A DNA stretch of 64,000 bases, from the IMG/VR virus record IMGVR_UViG_3300045988_155182. One strand, written 5' to 3'. Source of the DNA: a virus (taxonomy: Duplodnaviria > Heunggongvirae > Uroviricota > Caudoviricetes). Of this stretch, positions 4,730 to 26,302 are shown one piece after another. The notes under the pieces were generated by a model. That model saw only the letters and a program-made list of their open reading frames with translations. It had not been told where the DNA came from and did not search any database. How positions within the stretch are numbered: the stretch's first letter is position 1; each line of letters opens with the position of its first letter. The position numbers and the translations under genes were made by a program.

Positions 4730-7700
4730 ATGTGGTACAGGGAAGGTACTATCACATTTACACAGGGTAGCAATACTCTGGTTGGGGCAGGGACAGCCTG
4801 GAACGTAACAGCTAATGGTGTGTTGCCGGGGATGATCGTCATTGGCCCCGACAATAAGCTGTATGAGATCAAGCGCGTAATAAGCGATACGAATATTGTT
4901 CTCTCAGAACCTTATACCGGCGAAACTCAGTCTGAGGTTCCGTGCCGAATCATTACGACCTATGAAGGCGACTTAACACAGTTTAGCGCGCGCTTTACTG
5001 CGCTAATGTCGCGTATGTCGGCTGATTCCAAGTCCATGCGCAGTTGGTTGACTGCGCTGGATGAGGTGACAATCGAGCGTGAAGACGGTACAGAAGTAAC
5101 CGTTAAGCCGCTAATGCAGATCGTCAACGAGCACAACGAAAACGTTGAGTGGTATAAAAATAACACTGACGCGATTGATGCTGCTGGCGACAAAGCTCGT
5201 GAGGCGGCGGCCAGTGCTGCCGCAGCAGCAGAAAGCGCCAATACCGCTGGAGAAAAAGCCTCTCAAGCGTCTCAAAGTGCATCCGCTGCGGCATCCTCAC
5301 AAAGTGCCGCAAGTGCGAGTGCAACTGCTGCGAAAAAATCTGAAACGAATGCCGCAGCGTCACAACAATCAGCAGCCACTTCTGCATCCACCGCGACCAC
5401 GAAAGCGTCAGAAGCTGCCACCTCAGCCCGGGATGCGGCGGCCTCAAAAGAGGCAGCGAAATCATCAGAAACGAACGCATCCTTGAGCGCCAGTAGCGCA
5501 GCTTCCTCGGCAACGGCGGCAGGAAATTCCGCGAAGGCGGCAAAAACGTCCGAGACGAACGCCAGGTCTTCTGAGACGGCAGCGGGACAGAGCGCCTCAG
5601 CTGCGGCAGGCTCAAAAACAGCGGCTGCGTCGTCTGCCAGTGCCGCGTCAACAAGTGCCGGGCAGGCCTCAGCCAGTGCCACCGCCGCCGGAAAATCGGC
5701 AGAAAGTGCCGCATCGTCTGCTTCAACAGCCACAACGAAGGCTGGCGAAGCCACTGAACAGGCCAGCGCAGCAGCGAGGTCTGCTTCCGCAGCGAAGACA
5801 TCCGAAACGAACGCGAAAGCGTCGGAAACCAGCGCAGAATCCTCAAAAACGGCTGCCGCATCGTCCGCCAGTTCGGCGGCGTCATCGGCATCATCTGCGT
5901 CTGCTTCAAAAGATGAGGCGACCAGACAGGCGTCAGCAGCGAAGGGCAGTGCCACGACGGCATCCACGAAAGCAACAGAGGCGGCAGGCAGTGCGACGGC
6001 AGCATCTCAGAGCAAAACTGCTGCTGAATCCGCTGCGACCCGTGCGGAAGCTGCTGCTGATCGTGCTGAAGAGATTGCCGGTGCAGTTGCGATGGAAGAC
6101 GCAAGCCTTACAACTAAAGGTGTTGTGAAACTTAGCAGTGCTGTTGATAGCACCAGTGAATCGCTGGCCGCAACGCCAAAAGCAGTTAAAGCAGCCAATG
6201 ACAATGCGAATAGCAGGGTGCCATCTAACCGAAAAGTTAACGGAAAAGCACTGACTGCGGATATAACATTAACGCCGAAAGATATTGGTACTTTAAATTC
6301 AGTAACGATGTCTTTCTCTGGCGGGGCTGGGTGGTTCAAACTGGCTACGGTTACCATGCCACAAGCGAGTTCCATCGTTTACATCGCATTGATTGGTGGC
6401 GCTGGTTACAACGTCGGTTCCCCACATCAGGCAGGCATTTCAGAACTGGTTCTACGAGCAGGCAATGGAAACCCCAAAGGAATTACCGGGGCTTTGTGGA
6501 AGCGTACAGCCGTCGGATTAACGAATTTCGCCTGGATCAACACATCCGGCGATACATATGATATTTACGTTGAGATTGGCAATTATGCGACTCGTGTAAA
6601 TATCCATTGGGATTGTACTGCAAATGCGACAGTTTCTATTTATACATCGCCAACATATTCAGCGAGTAAGCCTTCCAGCGTTACCGATGGTGTTGTTTAT
6701 ACGATGTATAGCTCACATCAGAAACCGACGCCGTTAGATATTGGAGCACTGCCAACAACCGGAGGAACAGTTTCAGGTCCGTTGTCTGTTACAGGTGGAT
6801 TAACTGGTTCATTGAATGGTAATGCAAGTACAGCCACGAAATTGCAGACGGCAAGATCTATCGGTGGAGTTGTTTTCGACGGTTCTGCAAATATTAACCT
6901 TCCAGGTGTAAACACTACGGGTAATCAGAACACCACTGGTAATGCTGCAACTGCTACAAAACTTCAGACGGCAAGAACTATCGGCGGCGTGAGCTTTGAT
7001 GGTACTGCGAATATTAATTTGCCAGGTGTTAATACGACTGGTAATCAGAACACAACGGGCAACGCGGCTACTGCTACGAAGTTGCAGACTGCGCGTACTA
7101 TCAATGGGGTGTCGTTTGACGGCTCGGCAAATATTGCCTTGTCGCCAGCAAATATAGGTTGCCCGGCATCTCCTACTGGTTGGCTTGTAACAGGTGATAA
7201 TGGAGCTTCAATAACAACAGAGCAATTAGTGACTCTGCTACGAGATAATGGTGCTTTTAGTGTAAAGGCATGGATAGCGCGTTGTGCCTGGGCGTATGCA
7301 AATAGTGCATCCATACCAGACAGCGAAACAGGATGCGGCATTATTCCACTGGCTGGCGCAGTTATTGAGGTATTTAATAAAGGCAGTAGCTCAAACAATT
7401 ATACGATTCGTATAACAACGGCAACAACGACAGGTGTCTCTGGCGCACTCACTAATGCGGAGTTTGTCTATGTGTTTAATGGGACGACCTATTCACCAGG
7501 ATGGCGCAGAGCGTATAACACTAAAAACAAGCCTACTGCGGCTGATGTCGGAGCTTTACCACTATCTGGAGGGGCGTTAACTGGCGGATTAACTGCTGCT
7601 GGCGAGATAATTTCCAAATCGGCGAATGGTCTGCGCATTGCCTACGGAAACTACGGATTCTTTATCCGAAATGATGGATTGGACACATATTTCATGCTAA

Positions 7701-12254: not shown

Positions 12255-12776
12255 TTATTCTTCGAACAATTTTTCGATAGATTTTGTAGGATAGAACAAA
12301 GAACGCTCGTTGTTACCAACCAGCTGGATAAAGCCTAAACTTTTATAAAACGCCTTGGCTTTGTCATTTAACGCCTCAACGAAAAGTCCATGAATGCCTA
12401 CAGCAAGAGATGCATTGTACACAACGCGCATTGCATGTGTTACAAGCATTGAGCCAAATCCTTGACCTTGAAGGGACTTGTCCAAAGCCAGCCTACCCAA
12501 AGTAACACTTGGAACATTCCGATAAGGAACCTTCTTTTGTTTGCTTCTTGAAGGTAAGGACTCCTTTTCAAAACAACTACCTGACAAAGTGTAATATCCT
12601 AACACTTTTGGCCTTTCTTCTTGAGTGCAAAGCACATAAGCACGAAGAATTTTTCCCTCATGCTGCCTTTTTAAGTGGTTGGCTAAAAAGGCGTTTAGTG
12701 ACTCTTCGCCGCAATCAAAACCGTTTAGATCATAATCTTTCTCTCCAGAGAAAATCTCTATCGTTGTATTGCTCAC
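12255..12776 (-). CDS. GNAT-family acetyltransferase toxin (TacT/AtaT-like)
   Basis: Acetyl-CoA binding motif QGQGFGSMLV; ~170 aa; immediately downstream of a DUF1778-type small ORF with a 7-nt gap. Confidence 0.75.
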   Translation of the reverse strand: MSNTTIEIFSGEKDYDLNGFDCGEESLNAFLANHLKRQHEGKILRAYVLCTQEERPKVLGYYTLSGSCFEKESLPSRSKQKKVPYRNVPSVTLGRLALDKSLQGQGFGSMLVTHAMRVVYNASLAVGIHGLFVEALNDKAKAFYKSLGFIQLVGNNERSLFYPTKSIEKLFEE

Positions 12777-14399: not shown

Positions 14400-14443
14400 T
14401 TTTATTGAGGTGCTGCTTGGCACCTCTTTCTATAGGTTCCCTA

Positions 14444-15163
14444 ATGCTCTACAAATATATTGGAAGTGAAGATTCGCAAAAAGTGTTACGTAACCTCAAA
14501 CGGTTTGTAGAGGACGGCACTATCTCTGCTAGCGCACCTTCTTCATTCAACGACCCATCAGAGTTCAAAGTTTCGATAACGATGGGAGGTACAGAAGTGG
14601 AGCGCCGGAAACACTTTGAAGACAATGGATGTAAGGATTTTTCCTTTGAAGACTGGGATGCTGTAGCTCCTGAAGCTGCAAAATCGTTGGCTGTGGATTT
14701 GCGGAAAGAATCATTAGGGGCTTTTGGTGTGGTGTGCTTGTCACCAAACGAAGATAACATCTTGATGTGGTCACATTACTCAGTGTCGCATAAAGGTTTC
14801 TGCATAGGCTTTGATGATGATTTTGTTACCTCTATTGAGGGGTATCACAGCTTTGATAATGTGAAATATATACCTTCTGTTCCCGTGTTCGATGAAGTTA
14901 CAGATGAGTTTAAGGTACTTTTTGATAAGCTCTTTTTCTACAAGCACGAATGCTGGAAATATGAGGAAGAACAAAGGGTTATTACTAAAAAAATAGGCGC
15001 TCAGGCATTTGATAAGAAATATATTAGAGAGATCATTCTTGGACATAACGTTTCTCCTGAAGTAGAAGAATATGCCCGGACACAGCTAGACACGAGCATC
15101 GAGGTTTACAAAATGAGTACACCTGATGATGGTTATCTTCTTGTCAAAGAAAAGCTGAAGTAG
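14444..15163 (+). CDS. DUF2971-like protein of unknown function (candidate defence/accessory gene)
   Basis: N-terminal LYKYIGSED...L...FNDPSEF signature typical of DUF2971-type proteins (from memory). Visibly A+T-rich coding compared with neighbours. Start could be TTG 14405 or ATG 14444. Confidence 0.55.
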   Translation: MLYKYIGSEDSQKVLRNLKRFVEDGTISASAPSSFNDPSEFKVSITMGGTEVERRKHFEDNGCKDFSFEDWDAVAPEAAKSLAVDLRKESLGAFGVVCLSPNEDNILMWSHYSVSHKGFCIGFDDDFVTSIEGYHSFDNVKYIPSVPVFDEVTDEFKVLFDKLFFYKHECWKYEEEQRVITKKIGAQAFDKKYIREIILGHNVSPEVEEYARTQLDTSIEVYKMSTPDDGYLLVKEKLK

Positions 15164-15229
15164 CTCCAGACTTTCCTCAAATGATTATGTTGGGCGCTTT
15201 TCTTATTGAACTGGTTAGTGAGGCTAATA

Positions 15230-16402
15230 ATGGATTTGTTCTCAACCAAAATAGCAAAAAACAAGCTGCACGAATCTTTTAAACAGATTTATCAAGATAA
15301 TACATATGCTCCAGTAAGAGAAGTGATACAGTCGTGGGGGCGTGGGTTACTGGAGCGTAGCGGTGAGCAGACTAAATTCGTTAAAGAGTTTCAGACAACC
15401 TTCAATTCCGCCTTATGGGAATTGTATCTGAACGAAATGTTTATTCGTCTCGATTATTCTGTCGACTACACAAAAGACAGTCCCGATTTCTGTGTTACTA
15501 CACCGTCAGGCTACCAGTTTAACGTCGAAGCTGTGATATCAGATCGGCCACATAATCCACCTGCAGGTGTTCTTTTTAGCGAATCAAAATTCAAACATCA
15601 ATCAACGCTAAAATTAATCGGAAAAATCAAAGACAAACATGATCTTTTTACAGGAGTTAATGGCAAAAAATTCCCGTACTCTACGATGTCTCATGTAGTT
15701 AATAAGCCGTTTGTTCTGGCGCTTGCACCCTTTGACTCCGATTTATCATTGTCTCAAAATAACACAATCATCAATCGAGTGTTGTTTGGCATTGAGGAAC
15801 CTACCACCAGAAATTTGGTGACTGGCAGCCAAACTAAAGTTACCTCAATCAAAAAGAATGAAGACGTTGAAATTCCATTAGGTATATTTACTAACGACTC
15901 ATATAAAGAAATAAGTGCGGTTATTTTCTCCACCACCGGCACTTTTGGAAAAGCCGTGGTTCAAAGCGGTATCGGTAGATATGTAAGGTCAACACGATAT
16001 CGAGCCATTGATGTGAATGATTTTATCGCCAATGAAGGGATGAAAAACGAGGGAAAGCACACACAAAGGATAGGACCTGATCATTTCATCACTACATATC
16101 GGCATTTTTTAAATAACGAAGTCACTGGTGCGGATATTGTAGTTTGTCATTCCACTGCTCATGAAGAGACGCACTTTGACGGCCTTCATATTTACTACAA
16201 TCCTTTTGCGACAGTGCCACTGGACAGAAATATTTTCTTCCCCCCAGAGATAACTCATAATTTTTACGATATGGAAAAAGAACAGTCTGTTCAGAATCAT
16301 CCTGATGGAGCGCTGGTATCTAGACAGGTTTTTGAACCAACTAGAGCACATTTTAGGTATATCATGAAACATTGGTTTCCAGGCTTTCTAAAAGATGTTT
16401 AA
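15230..16402 (+). CDS. Hypothetical 390-aa protein, partner of the DUF2971-like gene
   Basis: GAGG RBS 6 nt upstream of the ATG; co-oriented 66 nt after the DUF2971-like gene; followed by a strong terminator; no motif I can assign. Confidence 0.6.
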   Translation: MDLFSTKIAKNKLHESFKQIYQDNTYAPVREVIQSWGRGLLERSGEQTKFVKEFQTTFNSALWELYLNEMFIRLDYSVDYTKDSPDFCVTTPSGYQFNVEAVISDRPHNPPAGVLFSESKFKHQSTLKLIGKIKDKHDLFTGVNGKKFPYSTMSHVVNKPFVLALAPFDSDLSLSQNNTIINRVLFGIEEPTTRNLVTGSQTKVTSIKKNEDVEIPLGIFTNDSYKEISAVIFSTTGTFGKAVVQSGIGRYVRSTRYRAIDVNDFIANEGMKNEGKHTQRIGPDHFITTYRHFLNNEVTGADIVVCHSTAHEETHFDGLHIYYNPFATVPLDRNIFFPPEITHNFYDMEKEQSVQNHPDGALVSRQVFEPTRAHFRYIMKHWFPGFLKDV

Positions 16403-23344: not shown

Positions 23345-24122
23345 AATTACAATGATAAGTATTTACTTACTTATCTTTTATGTATAAGATGACTTTGTTT
23401 TCGTTGAGACGCGACTGTTTGAACTTAAATACAAGTGCAAACGAAGAAGTCTATCTGGCAGTAGCCTAATAAGCCAAACACCAGCGAGGTCAGTTTCCAG
23501 CCTCGTTACCGAAATGGGATACACTGAGCGAGTGTGATTACAGAACGCAGGAGGGAACATGAATGTTCCCTCCGATGAAGTAACAGAATGGGCGGTTGGT
23601 ATATTTTCAACTCCATATGACTCCCGGATTCTTAGCCACTGACCGCCCATCCTGTTACGTCATTTTGTTCAATTATGTCGTTTATACTGGGTTAAAAAGC
23701 GGCGACGTAGCCCGGCTGGTATGGTTAGCCAGCACACAACGTTGAGGCCATTACATTTTTATCAATTCTAAGGTTCTATTCACAGAGATACCGGCGAGCG
23801 TTGATATGTAACATGTTGGGCAAACATTCAATCGGAGTAGTGGCCTCAACGTTGTGAAGACAGGATTGTTGTGTAGGTTTAACCACTGTTGCCATTGGTG
23901 CCTGTTTTCACAACAAATGATTCCATACATCACATTGTATAAATTACAAAGTAGGTGCTGTCCTCAGAAACATCATCTACTTAAAGAGTTTGCCTTCTAC
24001 TATTGAGCGAAGTCGAAAGCGTCTGGCACTAACGAAAAGTGCAAGTAGCGGTGCGTTTCCTGGCAGAAACTAAACCGTCGCGATTGGCACTGTTGAGTAA
24101 TGAATACAGGCAGTGCTGAATT

Positions 24123-24197
24123 GATGGTGTAGCTCAGCGGTAGAGCAGTTGGCTGTTAACCAACTGGTCGGTGGTTCGAATCCACCCACCATCGCCA
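24123..24197 (+). tRNA. tRNA-Asn (anticodon GTT)
   Basis: Cloverleaf folded by hand: acceptor gatggtg/caccatc, D-arm gctc-agcggtag-gagc, anticodon loop ctGTTaa, T-arm ggtgg-ttcgaat-ccacc, 3' CCA encoded. Confidence 0.85.
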
Positions 24198-24199
24198 AT

Positions 24200-24275
24200 G
24201 CCGGTTTAGCTCAGTTGGTAGAGCGCCTGCCTTGTAAGCAGGATGTCAGCGGTTCGAGTCCGTTAACCGGCACCA
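24200..24275 (+). tRNA. tRNA-Thr (anticodon TGT)
   Basis: Acceptor gccggtt/aaccggc, anticodon stem cctgc/gcagg with loop ctTGTaa, T-loop ttcgagt, CCA encoded; 2 nt after tRNA-Asn. Confidence 0.85.
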
Positions 24276-24499
24276 ATACAACGATAAGATCATTACGGTT
24301 AATCGTCGTTCATGTGCACAATGACTGGTCGAAAGGTAGTGATCTTACCGTTGTGGTGGATTCGCAGACTGATGCGATAGCTTTCTTGGATGTTAGGGAA
24401 ATGCGGCCGCAAATCTTCCCTTTCGCGAGCGGTGATCGTCCGTAGTCCTAATTGGCTGCACCGTATGCCGGAGATTCAGTACCGGCCACCACAACGGCC

Positions 24500-24586
24500 G
24501 GAGAGTAGGGAGCATGGTGCTCAAGCGGTCTTGAAAACCGTCCCATTGCGCAAGCGATGATGGTTCGATTCCATTACTCTCCGCCA
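24500..24586 (+). tRNA. tRNA-Ser (anticodon TGA), class II with long variable arm
   Basis: Acceptor ggagagt/actctcc, anticodon stem gcggt/accgt with loop cttGAaa read as UGA, long variable arm, T-arm gatgg-ttcgatt-ccatt, CCA encoded. Confidence 0.7.
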
Positions 24587-24740
24587 GACACAGCGTTGAG
24601 CGGTTTGGCCTTTTAATCAACTCGATTAAGACTCCGCTAACATAAACCAGACCGCTCAACGCTGTGATAGACAATTACGGCAGACGTTCTTAACCATAGC
24701 TTGCTAACATCCTAGCAACACTTTTTTAAGCGCAAAATCC

Positions 24741-24763
24741 AAAGGGGCTTCGGCCCCTTTTTT
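24741..24763. terminator. Bidirectional rho-independent terminator (UUCG tetraloop)
   Basis: ggggc-ttcg-gcccc followed by tttttt on the plus strand; T-rich on the minus strand as well. Lies between the tRNA cluster and the convergent minus-strand ORF. Confidence 0.8.
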
Positions 24764-24764
24764 G

Positions 24765-25673
24765 TTAATGATTGCCTAGATATGATTTTAGTTCTTCTTT
24801 AATGATTAGTGAGTATTCTAAAATATCACTTAGTAAAAATTTTGCTCTGTTAAAATACCCACCAAAAGAACCTAAAATTTCAGATGGTCTTTCTAAGAGC
24901 ATCACAATATCATCTTCTTGCACTTTAGTAATGTAACTTCTAACAGCTCTTTCTCCAATAACTCTTTTCTTACCGTTTATTTCAGATTCATCTAAAACCT
25001 TATTTATAAATTTTTCTGTATCATTGAATCGTCCACTATTGTGTACTATTGTATGTCTTAGTAGTTCAATTAGCTTGATGTTAAAGCGATAGTTTTTGCC
25101 AATCTTGTTGTTTGTTTCTATCTCTTTGAAGCCAGGTATTTTATTTCTGAAAATTTTAGTTATTTTTTTCGATGGGTTACTTTTTGCTTTTAATAATCTG
25201 TAATAAACTTCCCTTTTCCCAATTTCATCATCTTCAACCTTACCAAAATCACTTGAGGACCATAAATCATTTCGAACACATACAGTATAGACATATATTG
25301 CCTCAATATAGTCTTCCAGTAACTCATAGGCTTCAGTAATAACCCACTGATATTGTTTATTTTTCAAAGTATTACACAATCTTATCTTTTCTTCTAAATC
25401 AATGGCGCTGTTACCTATCTCTAATGTTGAACCTGTATATGGGTTTGAACATAAATGGCGAGCTAACGTTGTGCCACACTTAATCTTAATAGTTTCATTA
25501 ATATTAATAATAGTATCTGGATTCTGTGCATACTCCACTTCTTTAAGAAGACGTTTTATATTTTTCTTTGTTGTATCATTTATCTGATTTAAATAGTCAA
25601 AAAGTAAAGATATTTCTTCTCTAAATTCGTTGTATTTATTTTCAATCAAAGAATCAGACAACTTACCAATCAT
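24765..25673 (-). CDS. A+T-rich hypothetical protein with HEPN-type Rx4H motif (candidate abortive-infection RNase)
   Basis: 302-aa ORF with A+T-rich codon usage unlike its neighbours; motif LLRHTIVHNSG (R-x4-H) in the C-terminal half; isolated between terminator and tRNAs. Confidence 0.5.
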   Translation of the reverse strand: MIGKLSDSLIENKYNEFREEISLLFDYLNQINDTTKKNIKRLLKEVEYAQNPDTIININETIKIKCGTTLARHLCSNPYTGSTLEIGNSAIDLEEKIRLCNTLKNKQYQWVITEAYELLEDYIEAIYVYTVCVRNDLWSSSDFGKVEDDEIGKREVYYRLLKAKSNPSKKITKIFRNKIPGFKEIETNNKIGKNYRFNIKLIELLRHTIVHNSGRFNDTEKFINKVLDESEINGKKRVIGERAVRSYITKVQEDDIVMLLERPSEILGSFGGYFNRAKFLLSDILEYSLIIKEELKSYLGNH

Positions 25674-25846
25674 TAAAACCTCTATAAAATGTACATTTCA
25701 AGGCAATCCTTACTGTAATCTATTGTCGTAATCACTTCAATTGTTTACTAGTCAATCAATAAGTTACTACATACTTATCAAAAAAATCTGTTTGTAGTAT
25801 AGTCTGATATGTTCGAATCAATATTTATAAAGGTATTTGTTAAGTT

Positions 25847-26092
25847 ATGACGATCACTATCTACGGACGAGATAACTGCTCATACTGCAAACGTGCGGTC
25901 GAGCTGGCGAAGCAACTAAAGGGACATGGCTACGGTGATTATGAGTACATCGACATCACCACTGCCGGTATCGACAAGGAAAAACTAAGTGAAATTGTTG
26001 GTAAACCGGTAGAGACTATCCCCCAGGTGCTGATCGATGGCCAGCCGATTGGCGGATACACAGAACTGGCTGCATACGTCAGCACCCTCTGA
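25847..26092 (+). CDS. Glutaredoxin (NrdC/NrdH-like redoxin)
   Basis: Active site CSYC near the N-terminus; TIPQVLIDGQPIGGYTEL motif; 81 aa. Confidence 0.85.
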   Translation: MTITIYGRDNCSYCKRAVELAKQLKGHGYGDYEYIDITTAGIDKEKLSEIVGKPVETIPQVLIDGQPIGGYTELAAYVSTL

Positions 26093-26171
26093 TTTTAACG
26101 GCTCACAGGAGCCGTTTTTATTCCCACCAAACTCACTCCCATTTCCCTTAAAATTCAAAAAACAACGTCAA

Positions 26172-26204
26172 AATGATTCCATACCTACTATGTATGGAAT
26201 CATT
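26172..26204. other. lox/dif-like recombination site candidate: 13-bp perfect inverted repeats around a 7-bp spacer
   Basis: aatgattccatac-ctactat-gtatggaatcatt, about 100 bp upstream of the tyrosine recombinase gene; half-site copies at 22904-22916 and 23916-23928. Confidence 0.5.
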
Positions 26205-26302
26205 GCTGAAAATGAGTTACTTTTACTCTTGATCCTATAAGAATCTATGCCTAATATACTGTTTACTTATACAGTGCATCGGCGTAACTCGGTGATTGTC
26301 AT

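Follow-up and report, generated by a model that had tools for sequence, protein, structure and literature searches.

A low-G+C cassette in an SSU5-like phage-plasmid of Escherichia coli encodes a candidate stand-alone HEPN ribonuclease of an undescribed family

Results

The gene and its surroundings

The 64,000-nucleotide viral DNA analyzed here (hereafter the window; IMG/VR record IMGVR_UViG_3300045988_155182) is part of an SSU5-like phage-plasmid of Escherichia coli, and on its minus strand, between a tRNA array and a glutaredoxin gene, lies a 302-aa open reading frame (ORF) that we propose as a candidate stand-alone HEPN ribonuclease (RNase) with a possible role in phage defense. The window has its best DNA match in CP053388 ("Escherichia phage CMS-2020a"); phage Cyrano is a relative as well, and sister elements take the form of non-mobilizable plasmids some 110 kb in size. 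An earlier note on this DNA, made from its letters alone, had picked out the ORF as the most A+T-rich coding stretch, and with a G+C content of 0.293 it is indeed the lowest among the 51 window ORFs of at least 150 aa, the next lowest standing at 0.393 and the window mean at 0.459. The ORF begins with ATG, is listed as "hypothetical protein" in every public source and corresponds to PHROG 35492 ("unknown function"); the identical protein occurs on at least 1000 public contigs. Ratios of nonsynonymous to synonymous substitution rates (dN/dS) of 0.275 between two E. coli alleles and 0.154 between two Klebsiella copies indicate purifying selection.

The gene comes with its own ribosome-binding site, a weak candidate promoter and a terminator, and is oriented opposite to the backbone (Table 1). 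A promoter scan reported none on the minus strand, and the TTGAAG/TACAGT pair scored below the threshold of that scan, which leaves it a candidate sigma-70 promoter read from the sequence; within the ORF, promoter-like matches on the antisense (plus) strand numbered 3 against 7.1 expected by chance. Just 4 nt past the stop codon lies a hairpin that is a strong terminator on the plus strand, where six U follow it, and a weaker one for the ORF transcript. The description of this terminator as bidirectional was only partly right, because its minus-strand tail is only UUUGGAUUUU. On the other side, the intergenic region noticed before measures 173 bp (25674-25846) and is shared with the divergent glutaredoxin gene, and the three tRNA genes said to lie about 180 bp away end 178 bp from the ORF stop codon, as measured from tRNA-Ser.

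Table 1. Features of the cassette and its borders, in window coordinates
Feature	Position	Strand	Basis
302-aa ORF, HEPN-like family (first member, the window copy)	24765..25673	-	PHROG 35492; dN/dS 0.15-0.28
Codons R206-H207-T-I-V-H211, predicted RNase active-site motif	25041..25058	-	invariant in 17/17; end of helix 195-211
Codons W110..Y127 (QWVITEAYELLEDYIEAIY), second conserved block	25293..25346	-	alignments; helix 93-133, pLDDT (predicted local distance difference test) 81-94
Exchangeable cassette, ORF plus 173-bp upstream region	24765..25846	.	homology breakpoints
Shine-Dalgarno sequence GAGG, 5 nt 5' of the ATG	25679..25682	-	read from sequence; kept in allele 2
Candidate weak sigma-70 promoter, TTGAAG-17 nt-TACAGT	25712..25740	-	8/12 consensus positions, found by eye
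G+C-rich hairpin AAAGGGGC-TTCG-GCCCCTTT, between the convergent tRNA array and ORF	24741..24760	.	terminator scan
GrxA-family glutaredoxin gene, right border of slot, promoter in the shared intergenic region	25847..26092	+	
tRNA-Asn/Thr/Ser array, left border of slot, a backbone feature and not a partner of the ORF	24123..24586	+	
tRNA-Asn(GTT)	24123-24197	+	
tRNA-Thr(TGT)	24200-24275	+	
tRNA-Ser(TGA)	24500-24586	+	

A cassette exchanged in a slot of SSU5-like phage-plasmids

Homology to phage Cyrano ends at 24764 and restarts at 25847, the start codon of the glutaredoxin gene, and these exact breakpoints define the mobile unit as the ORF together with its 173-bp upstream region. That unit contains one ORF, its flanking neighbors being the tRNAs and the glutaredoxin gene. 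Compared with a sister plasmid carrying a second allele, the flanks are 97-100% identical, and identity in the cassette itself falls to 58-84% per 100 bp, for the most part 58-78%. At the protein level this pair of E. coli alleles is 56-59% identical, with a synonymous divergence (dS) of about 1; nearly identical flanks around a diverged cassette indicate allelic replacement by recombination. Two imperfect inverted repeats that bracket the ORF (24766-24784/25694-25712 and 24798-24819/25656-25677) were considered as cassette ends and rejected as probably due to chance, because TTAATGATT, taken from the contexts of the start and stop codons, is all that they have in common, and neither sits at the points where homology breaks off.

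The G+C content of all enterobacterial copies is 0.29-0.32, against 0.44-0.49 in their flanks. Of 5426 complete E. coli genomes, the ligase of the backbone is present in 245, and 30 of these (about 12%; 19 with allele 1 and 11 with allele 2) carry the ORF, always on plasmids. The same slot is occupied in five sampled relatives by a plus-strand gene of the Gp49 family, co-oriented with grxA, and in plasmid pS2-S1K81-2 by AbiGi (PADLOC, 5.5e-47) and a 403-aa partner, on the minus strand and in place of Gp49. This AbiG locus (AbiGi/AbiGii) is the positional equivalent of our ORF between tRNA-Ser and grxA, though as a two-gene system it is unrelated to the ORF and has no sequence similarity to it. 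Homologues in Klebsiella and Citrobacter hold an equivalent place, beside PhoH and Gp49. Orientation opposite to the backbone operons, foreign G+C content and allele-for-allele replacement together mark the ORF as an accessory ("moron") gene. As an aside on pS2-S1K81-2 (NZ_CP107145.1; locus L019, 10618-12677), the 403-aa partner matches no PADLOC AbiGii model and has only a weak match to HSDR_N_2, and the locus may be a divergent AbiG variant.

An invariant motif in a sparsely conserved family

Word-indexed homologue searches returned only nine protein clusters, from E. coli, Klebsiella and a metagenomic Thermodesulfobacteriota genome; tblastn added further copies in Citrobacter and on a Pseudomonas veronii plasmid, and a pattern scan of IMG/VR found ten more relatives, at 24-32% identity, on other viral contigs. 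The resulting 17 family members reach down to 17% identity. The sequence LLRHTIVHNSG, on which the earlier note had built its case, is present at residues 204-214 and holds the sole R-x4-H of the protein (R206 to H211). Taken alone, such a bare motif is weak evidence and not above chance: it appeared in 19% of shuffles of the protein and in 18 of the 51 long window ORFs, and the narrower R[NDH]xxxH appeared in 3% of shuffles. What lifts it above chance is its invariance in homologues, with R206, H207 and H211 unchanged in 17/17 members. Only 11 columns of the 17-sequence alignment are invariant in all, namely R206, H207, I209, V210 and H211 in the motif, W110, A115, Y116, E117 and Y127 in a second block in which E120 is nearly so, and W138. 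The protein has four His in total, two of them within the motif. Conservation is highest at residues 195-215 and 96-133, and the N-terminal 95 and C-terminal 87 residues hold almost no invariant positions, a pattern that, as far as the alignment goes, would be expected of a catalytic core between fast-evolving surfaces.

Profiles, predicted structure and the HEPN superfamily

In the HEPN superfamily a polar residue (N, D or H) stands straight after the R of R-x4-6-H, a conserved acidic residue lies upstream in helix 2, often in the pattern E-x3-[KR], a variable insert separates helices 2 and 3, and domains that keep the motif are predicted RNases (PMC3710099). The sequence and structural features in this list have an actual or a plausible counterpart in our family. 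The polar residue is H207, giving R206-H207-x-x-x-H211 in 17/17 members. In an AF2 model of the ORF protein (pLDDT 76 overall, 80-94 over the conserved blocks), H211 is the final residue of helix 195-211 and a loop follows, the motif closing a helix as it does in HEPN domains; this is read from the predicted topology and not from coordinates or a superposition. Several short helices make up residues 134-194, an insert where the HEPN insert between helices 2 and 3 would be expected. Of the acidic residues in helix 93-133, E117 is invariant and E120 at least 90% conserved, which makes the pair, on the model, a candidate for the conserved acidic residue of helix 2; the E-x3-R form itself occurs only in the distant member P0008 (ESFER), whose own model has motif and insert in the same arrangement at lower confidence. 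The modeled fold shows structural similarity to solved HEPN domains; a Foldseek search of the full model against PDB and BFVD gave only long-helix noise.

Queries of several kinds (the whole protein, its core domains after trimming, every one of the 17 members, and two profiles) were run against Pfam, NCBIfam, PADLOC and PDB sequences and gave no significant match. Below threshold, two Pfam families of the HEPN clan matched over the motif, DUF3644 (E 0.053) and HEPN_Apea (E 0.0055-0.023). To follow the former, an alignment of 31 sequences was built from its representative EC042_2821 of E. coli 042 and compared with our family by hhalign in three ways; RHxIVH was placed over the RDqAVH of DUF3644, with R206/H211 onto R191/H196, and this was the only local match. 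Because HEPN families are mutually undetectable by sequence (PMC3710099), the lack of a profile match counts against membership of a named family and not against membership of the superfamily. The earlier assignment to AbiD/AbiF (Abi_2)-, AbiU2- or RiboL-PSP-like proteins accordingly falls, since no Pfam, NCBIfam or PADLOC model matches any member, but the outcome that the earlier note had named as refuting a HEPN nuclease, neither a HEPN-family hidden Markov model (HMM) match nor a structural one and a motif not conserved in homologues, did not arise: the HMM search was empty, and structural similarity and conservation of the motif were both found. The broader candidacy as a HEPN-type RNase therefore stands on predicted structure and conservation, not on HMMs. 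We consider it quite probable, given the model and the alignment, that the protein belongs to the HEPN superfamily, where it would be a new family outside Abi_2, AbiU2, RiboL-PSP, HepT and PrrC.

Genomic company of the family

The ten distant viral relatives have a G+C content below that of their surroundings. On one IMG/VR contig (L038) the gene order is integrase, family gene and PD-T7-5 (4e-120), on another (L044) it is integrase, family gene and PDC-S57, and both stretches (L038, 1-3286; L044, 1-2655) look like small defense islands at prophage ends; of the others, one follows a P2-type tail gene S and one a Bro-N protein. Neighbors thus vary across the 17 loci (tRNA plus glutaredoxin, PhoH, integrase, tail protein S, Bro-N), and the Pseudomonas, Thermodesulfobacteriota and viral contexts have no partner gene in common. 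Company with defense genes in variable islands is seen in the slot that holds AbiGi in pS2-S1K81-2 and beside PD-T7-5 and PDC-S57, and the defense or abortive-infection role first proposed from the motif fits both the swappable slot and these relatives. A further member (LI478_RS26410) is encoded on plasmid p2 of Klebsiella pneumoniae Kp1604 (NZ_CP085480.1; locus L045, 2480-3394); after p2 was cured, three lytic phages (1209, 168R and 9226R) plated 10- to 100-fold more efficiently, the gene responsible being unmapped (PMC8969562).

Two observations concern defense and mobile contexts more generally. On the P. veronii plasmid (NZ_CP142042.1; locus L024, 5723-7717), a 25%-identical member sits in the cargo of an element resembling an integrative and conjugative element, 14 bp after a 125-aa ORF with a faint two-transmembrane-domain match; in no other context is there a hint of an operon partner. 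Another low-G+C island of the window (14405-16402, plus strand, G+C 0.39-0.41) is made up of an ORF at 14405-15163 assigned to PDC-S31 (PADLOC 4e-38; Pfam DUF2971) and one at 15206-16402 assigned to PD-T7-5 (2e-139), so that the element has at least one recognized defense gene elsewhere.

The neighboring tRNAs

Phage tRNAs can help infections evade retron and PrrC systems (PMC11555353), and the earlier note had suggested that the ORF and the array might form a nuclease with its resistant tRNAs. Co-occurrence speaks otherwise. The array is found, with or without an extra tRNA-Tyr, in most sister elements without the ORF; tRNA-Asn and tRNA-Thr are also common to P1, P7 and D6; for the 13 members found off the SSU5 backbone, no tRNA lies within 5-7 kb; and the cassette breakpoint leaves the tRNAs outside. 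Their 7-nt anticodon loops (CUGUUAA, CUUGUAA, CUUGAAA) are those of E. coli K-12 asnT, thrU and serT, and so lack the loop changes proposed for nuclease resistance (PMC10264068). The whole tRNAs are 63-80% identical to the same K-12 genes, and resistance through the tRNA stem or through modification is possible. From this sequence comparison the closeness of ORF and array looks incidental, and the element's tRNAs may well counter the nucleases of other elements.

Discussion

We read the ORF as a stand-alone ("solo") HEPN RNase of an undescribed family, whose gene occupies an accessory slot of a phage-plasmid as a self-contained cassette of low G+C content, and, judging from sequence and predicted structure, we put the probability of this reading at roughly 55%. 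By analogy, the gene most likely serves against rival phages in the manner of HepS of the Salmonella prophage Gifsy-1 (PDB 9oik; PMC13043305), its closest functional model. HepS, too, consists of one HEPN protein whose R-x4-H is canonical, and its gene, at an accessory site of a temperate element, has no co-occurring partner or inhibitor; the protein is inactive by default until a phage protein activates it, whereupon it cuts the anticodon loops of tRNA-Thr, tRNA-Ile and tRNA-Ser (PMC13043305). Across the 17 loci our family shows the same combination of a single HEPN-like gene, an accessory prophage position and no conserved partner. The two proteins differ in size (302 aa against about 218 aa) and in the long N-terminal helix, the poorly modeled hairpin at 66-90 and the long insert at 134-194 of the ORF protein.

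The best-supported account, again by analogy, is that the ORF is an abortive-infection or exclusion gene of the phage-plasmid and works much as HepS does, which is constitutively made, inactive by default and opened by a phage protein. Synthesis would take place during residence of the element as a plasmid prophage, and the protein would stay inactive until a product of an infecting rival phage switched it on, with the fast-diverging N-terminal ~95 and C-terminal ~90 residues as the likely sensing or oligomerization parts. Two R206-x4-H211 motifs, aided by E117/E120, would then meet across a dimer to form a metal-independent RNase site, and cleavage of tRNA, mRNA or rRNA would stop translation and abort the infection. 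The RNase activity, dimerization, trigger, target and defense phenotype in this scheme are ones that we infer for the protein. Sequence analysis found no partner gene inside the cassette and no room for an RNA antitoxin.

Other known HEPN systems resemble the ORF less closely. HepT toxins (HI0074, 1jog; SO_3166, 5yep; 7ae2; 8xdj) are about 130 aa long and always paired with an MNT nucleotidyltransferase antitoxin, whereas the ORF is more than twice as long, has no neighboring MNT gene and matches no DUF86/HEPN Pfam model. The lactococcal AbiD/AbiD1/AbiF (Abi_2) and AbiV proteins are also single-ORF HEPN abortive-infection proteins of about 200-350 aa, mobile and A+T-rich, but the ORF matches none of them in Pfam or PADLOC and, unlike AbiF and AbiV, shows neither a sign of an RNA antitoxin nor space for one. 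No Pfam families other than DUF3644 (the EC042_2821 family) and the Apea-like HEPN family (PF18739) match the motif region even weakly, and DUF3644 shares with ours the local pattern N-I-x-x-I-x-x-x-R-[DH]-x-x-V-H; these matches nevertheless lie under the curated cut-offs, and DUF3644 proteins are fused to restriction-endonuclease-like and other domains in restriction-modification contexts (PMC3710099), an architecture different from that of the ORF protein. Finally, PrrC and RloC, which are found on some SSU5- and P1-type phage-plasmids (bioRxiv 10.1101/2025.09.12.675607), are HEPN RNases that cut tRNA anticodon loops as phage defense, but their N-terminal part is an ABC-ATPase domain and they go together with type I restriction-modification systems; at the ORF we found no ATPase domain, no PADLOC or Pfam match to them and no adjacent restriction-modification genes.

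Several points weigh against a solo HEPN defense nuclease. No profile match reached significance in Pfam, NCBIfam, PADLOC or PDB sequences, and the hhalign probability against DUF3644 was at most 2%. The models were built from shallow alignments of 6-7 sequences, with residues 50-90 and 260-275 at low confidence, and the placement of R206/H211 is one of AF2-model topology rather than a residue-level superposition on catalytic residues. The promoter of the ORF is weak and was spotted by eye only. Position can do no more than suggest a defense role, and Gp49, the commonest occupant of the slot, is no known defense gene; the authors of the Kp1604 study credit the protection conferred by p2 to a restriction-modification system (PMC8969562).

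Among the alternatives, we consider it unlikely that the ORF is a HEPN addiction toxin acting in post-segregational killing, its antitoxin being an RNA or a self-inhibiting part of the protein that has escaped recognition. Phage-plasmids need maintenance functions, and this backbone has other genes that resemble toxin-antitoxin components (YafO in sister elements, and a GNAT gene with DUF1778); AbiF and AbiV, moreover, form type III toxin-antitoxin systems whose RNA antitoxin is encoded upstream (PMC13064643). The cassette, however, has neither an MNT nor any other small gene, and only about 100 nt separate the -35 element of the glutaredoxin gene from the ATG, while the stop codon abuts the terminator. 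Going by sequence evidence only, there are no tandem repeats, and the upstream 173 nt have no convincing structure (z = -1.8). We rejected an RNA antitoxin of type III on these grounds, space, repeats and folding signal all being wanting and the divergent glutaredoxin promoter filling most of the region. Presence in about 12% of backbones and alternation of the slot with AbiG also fit addiction poorly, and for the distant relatives plasmid addiction is irrelevant because they are cargo of integrated prophages.

It is likewise improbable that the protein is helical but non-catalytic, for example a regulator, scaffold or HEPN-like domain that binds a ligand, with RHxIVH serving binding or folding. 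The empty HMM searches would suit such a protein, and there are precedents in the HEPN domain of AbiA, which only dimerizes (PMC13064643), and in those of sacsin and MtlR, which lack the motif (PMC3710099). Against it, R, H, H and the upstream Glu are invariant among just 11 such columns in 17 sequences, the motif occupies, in the model, the exact topological position of the HEPN catalytic site, and HEPN domains that keep the motif are predicted RNases (PMC3710099).

A role in the element's own cycle, whether decay of host or rival transcripts in lytic growth, processing of the neighboring tRNA precursor or counter-defense, strikes us as a rather poor prospect. Certain HEPN enzymes, Las1 and Ire1, do process RNA (PMC3710099), and in all enterobacterial copies the gene converges on the tRNA array at a distance of 178 bp. 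Yet about 88% of the E. coli elements with this backbone and its tRNAs are without the ORF, which is therefore not needed for tRNA maturation or lytic growth; its opposite orientation, foreign G+C content and allele replacement mark it as accessory; and the relatives outside SSU5 have no tRNA nearby.

We regard as very unlikely a "poison plus private antidote", in which a self-contained sensor-effector, whose fast-evolving, allele-specific parts outside the two conserved blocks read a structural protein of rival phages, came to lie beside the array because the two act together. Here the nuclease, or those of competitors (HepS, PrrC, retron effectors), would deplete host tRNAs for Thr, Ser, Asn or Tyr, and the divergent-bodied tRNAs of the element would sustain its own translation, so that the host is defended without self-block. 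Hardly credible is the narrower pairing in which the nuclease cuts the host Asn, Thr and Ser isoacceptors and the element's own tRNAs resist and keep its translation going: the ORF does adjoin the array wherever it occurs in an SSU5-type element, phage tRNAs are able to save infections from defenses that cut tRNA (PMC10264068, PMC11555353, PMC11464382), the targets of HepS overlap in part with the element's set and the tRNA bodies differ from those of the host, but host-identical loops with no loop-mutation signature and the co-occurrence pattern set out above led us to reject it.

In kind, what we describe is a new, unannotated family of a well-known sort and brings no new kind of mechanism. 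If the ORF does encode an active solo HEPN nuclease, it would add a defense family missed by PADLOC, Pfam and NCBIfam, and would be the second system, after HepS, in which to study how phage sensing and the shutdown of translation are combined in a single small HEPN protein. The junction between tRNA-Ser and grxA is marked by these findings as a slot for defense exchange, and the two E. coli alleles, lying in nearly identical backbones, amount to a natural experiment on specificity. Clinical strains of E. coli, Shigella, Salmonella and Klebsiella commonly have SSU5-like phage-plasmids, and an active nuclease of this family would bear on phage therapy against strains with these plasmids.

Further observations on the element

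The tRNA region has several features of its own. Between tRNA-Thr and tRNA-Ser lies a 224-nt spacer (24276-24499) with a folding energy of -76.5 kcal/mol (z = -2.3) and no Rfam match; Cyrano and pYLMB53a lack it, having a 9-nt gap, and other sisters have a longer spacer. Long hairpins surround the array (23575-23663, 23735-23856, 24273-24359, 24348-24497 and 24589-24666), with arms of 12-24 nt that are 83-100% complementary and, in two of them, a shared arm motif CACA[AG]CGTTGAG; these might be processing or recombination sites. Many sisters (L008, L013, L019, L021 and L023 were compared) have a tRNA-Tyr(GTA) between tRNA-Asn and tRNA-Thr that is missing at 24197-24200 of the window, so that the tRNA array is itself variable. 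The ~780 nt 5' of tRNA-Asn (23345-24122) contain no annotated ORF and have no Rfam match, and are about 98% conserved among sisters.

A second variable slot, empty in the window (26093-26302), lies between grxA and the integrase gene; in sisters it holds a YafO-family toxin with a partner or a 307-aa unknown protein, and in Klebsiella colicin M, a microcin-like gene and YafO. At 12255-12776 on the minus strand is a GNAT acetyltransferase gene whose equivalent on a related plasmid (locus L020) is paired with a DUF1778 gene, which suggests a toxin-antitoxin module of the TacAT type. Lastly, the stretch at 4951-6300 of the window has an unusually high G+C content (0.57-0.58) and a strong AT skew of about 0.31.

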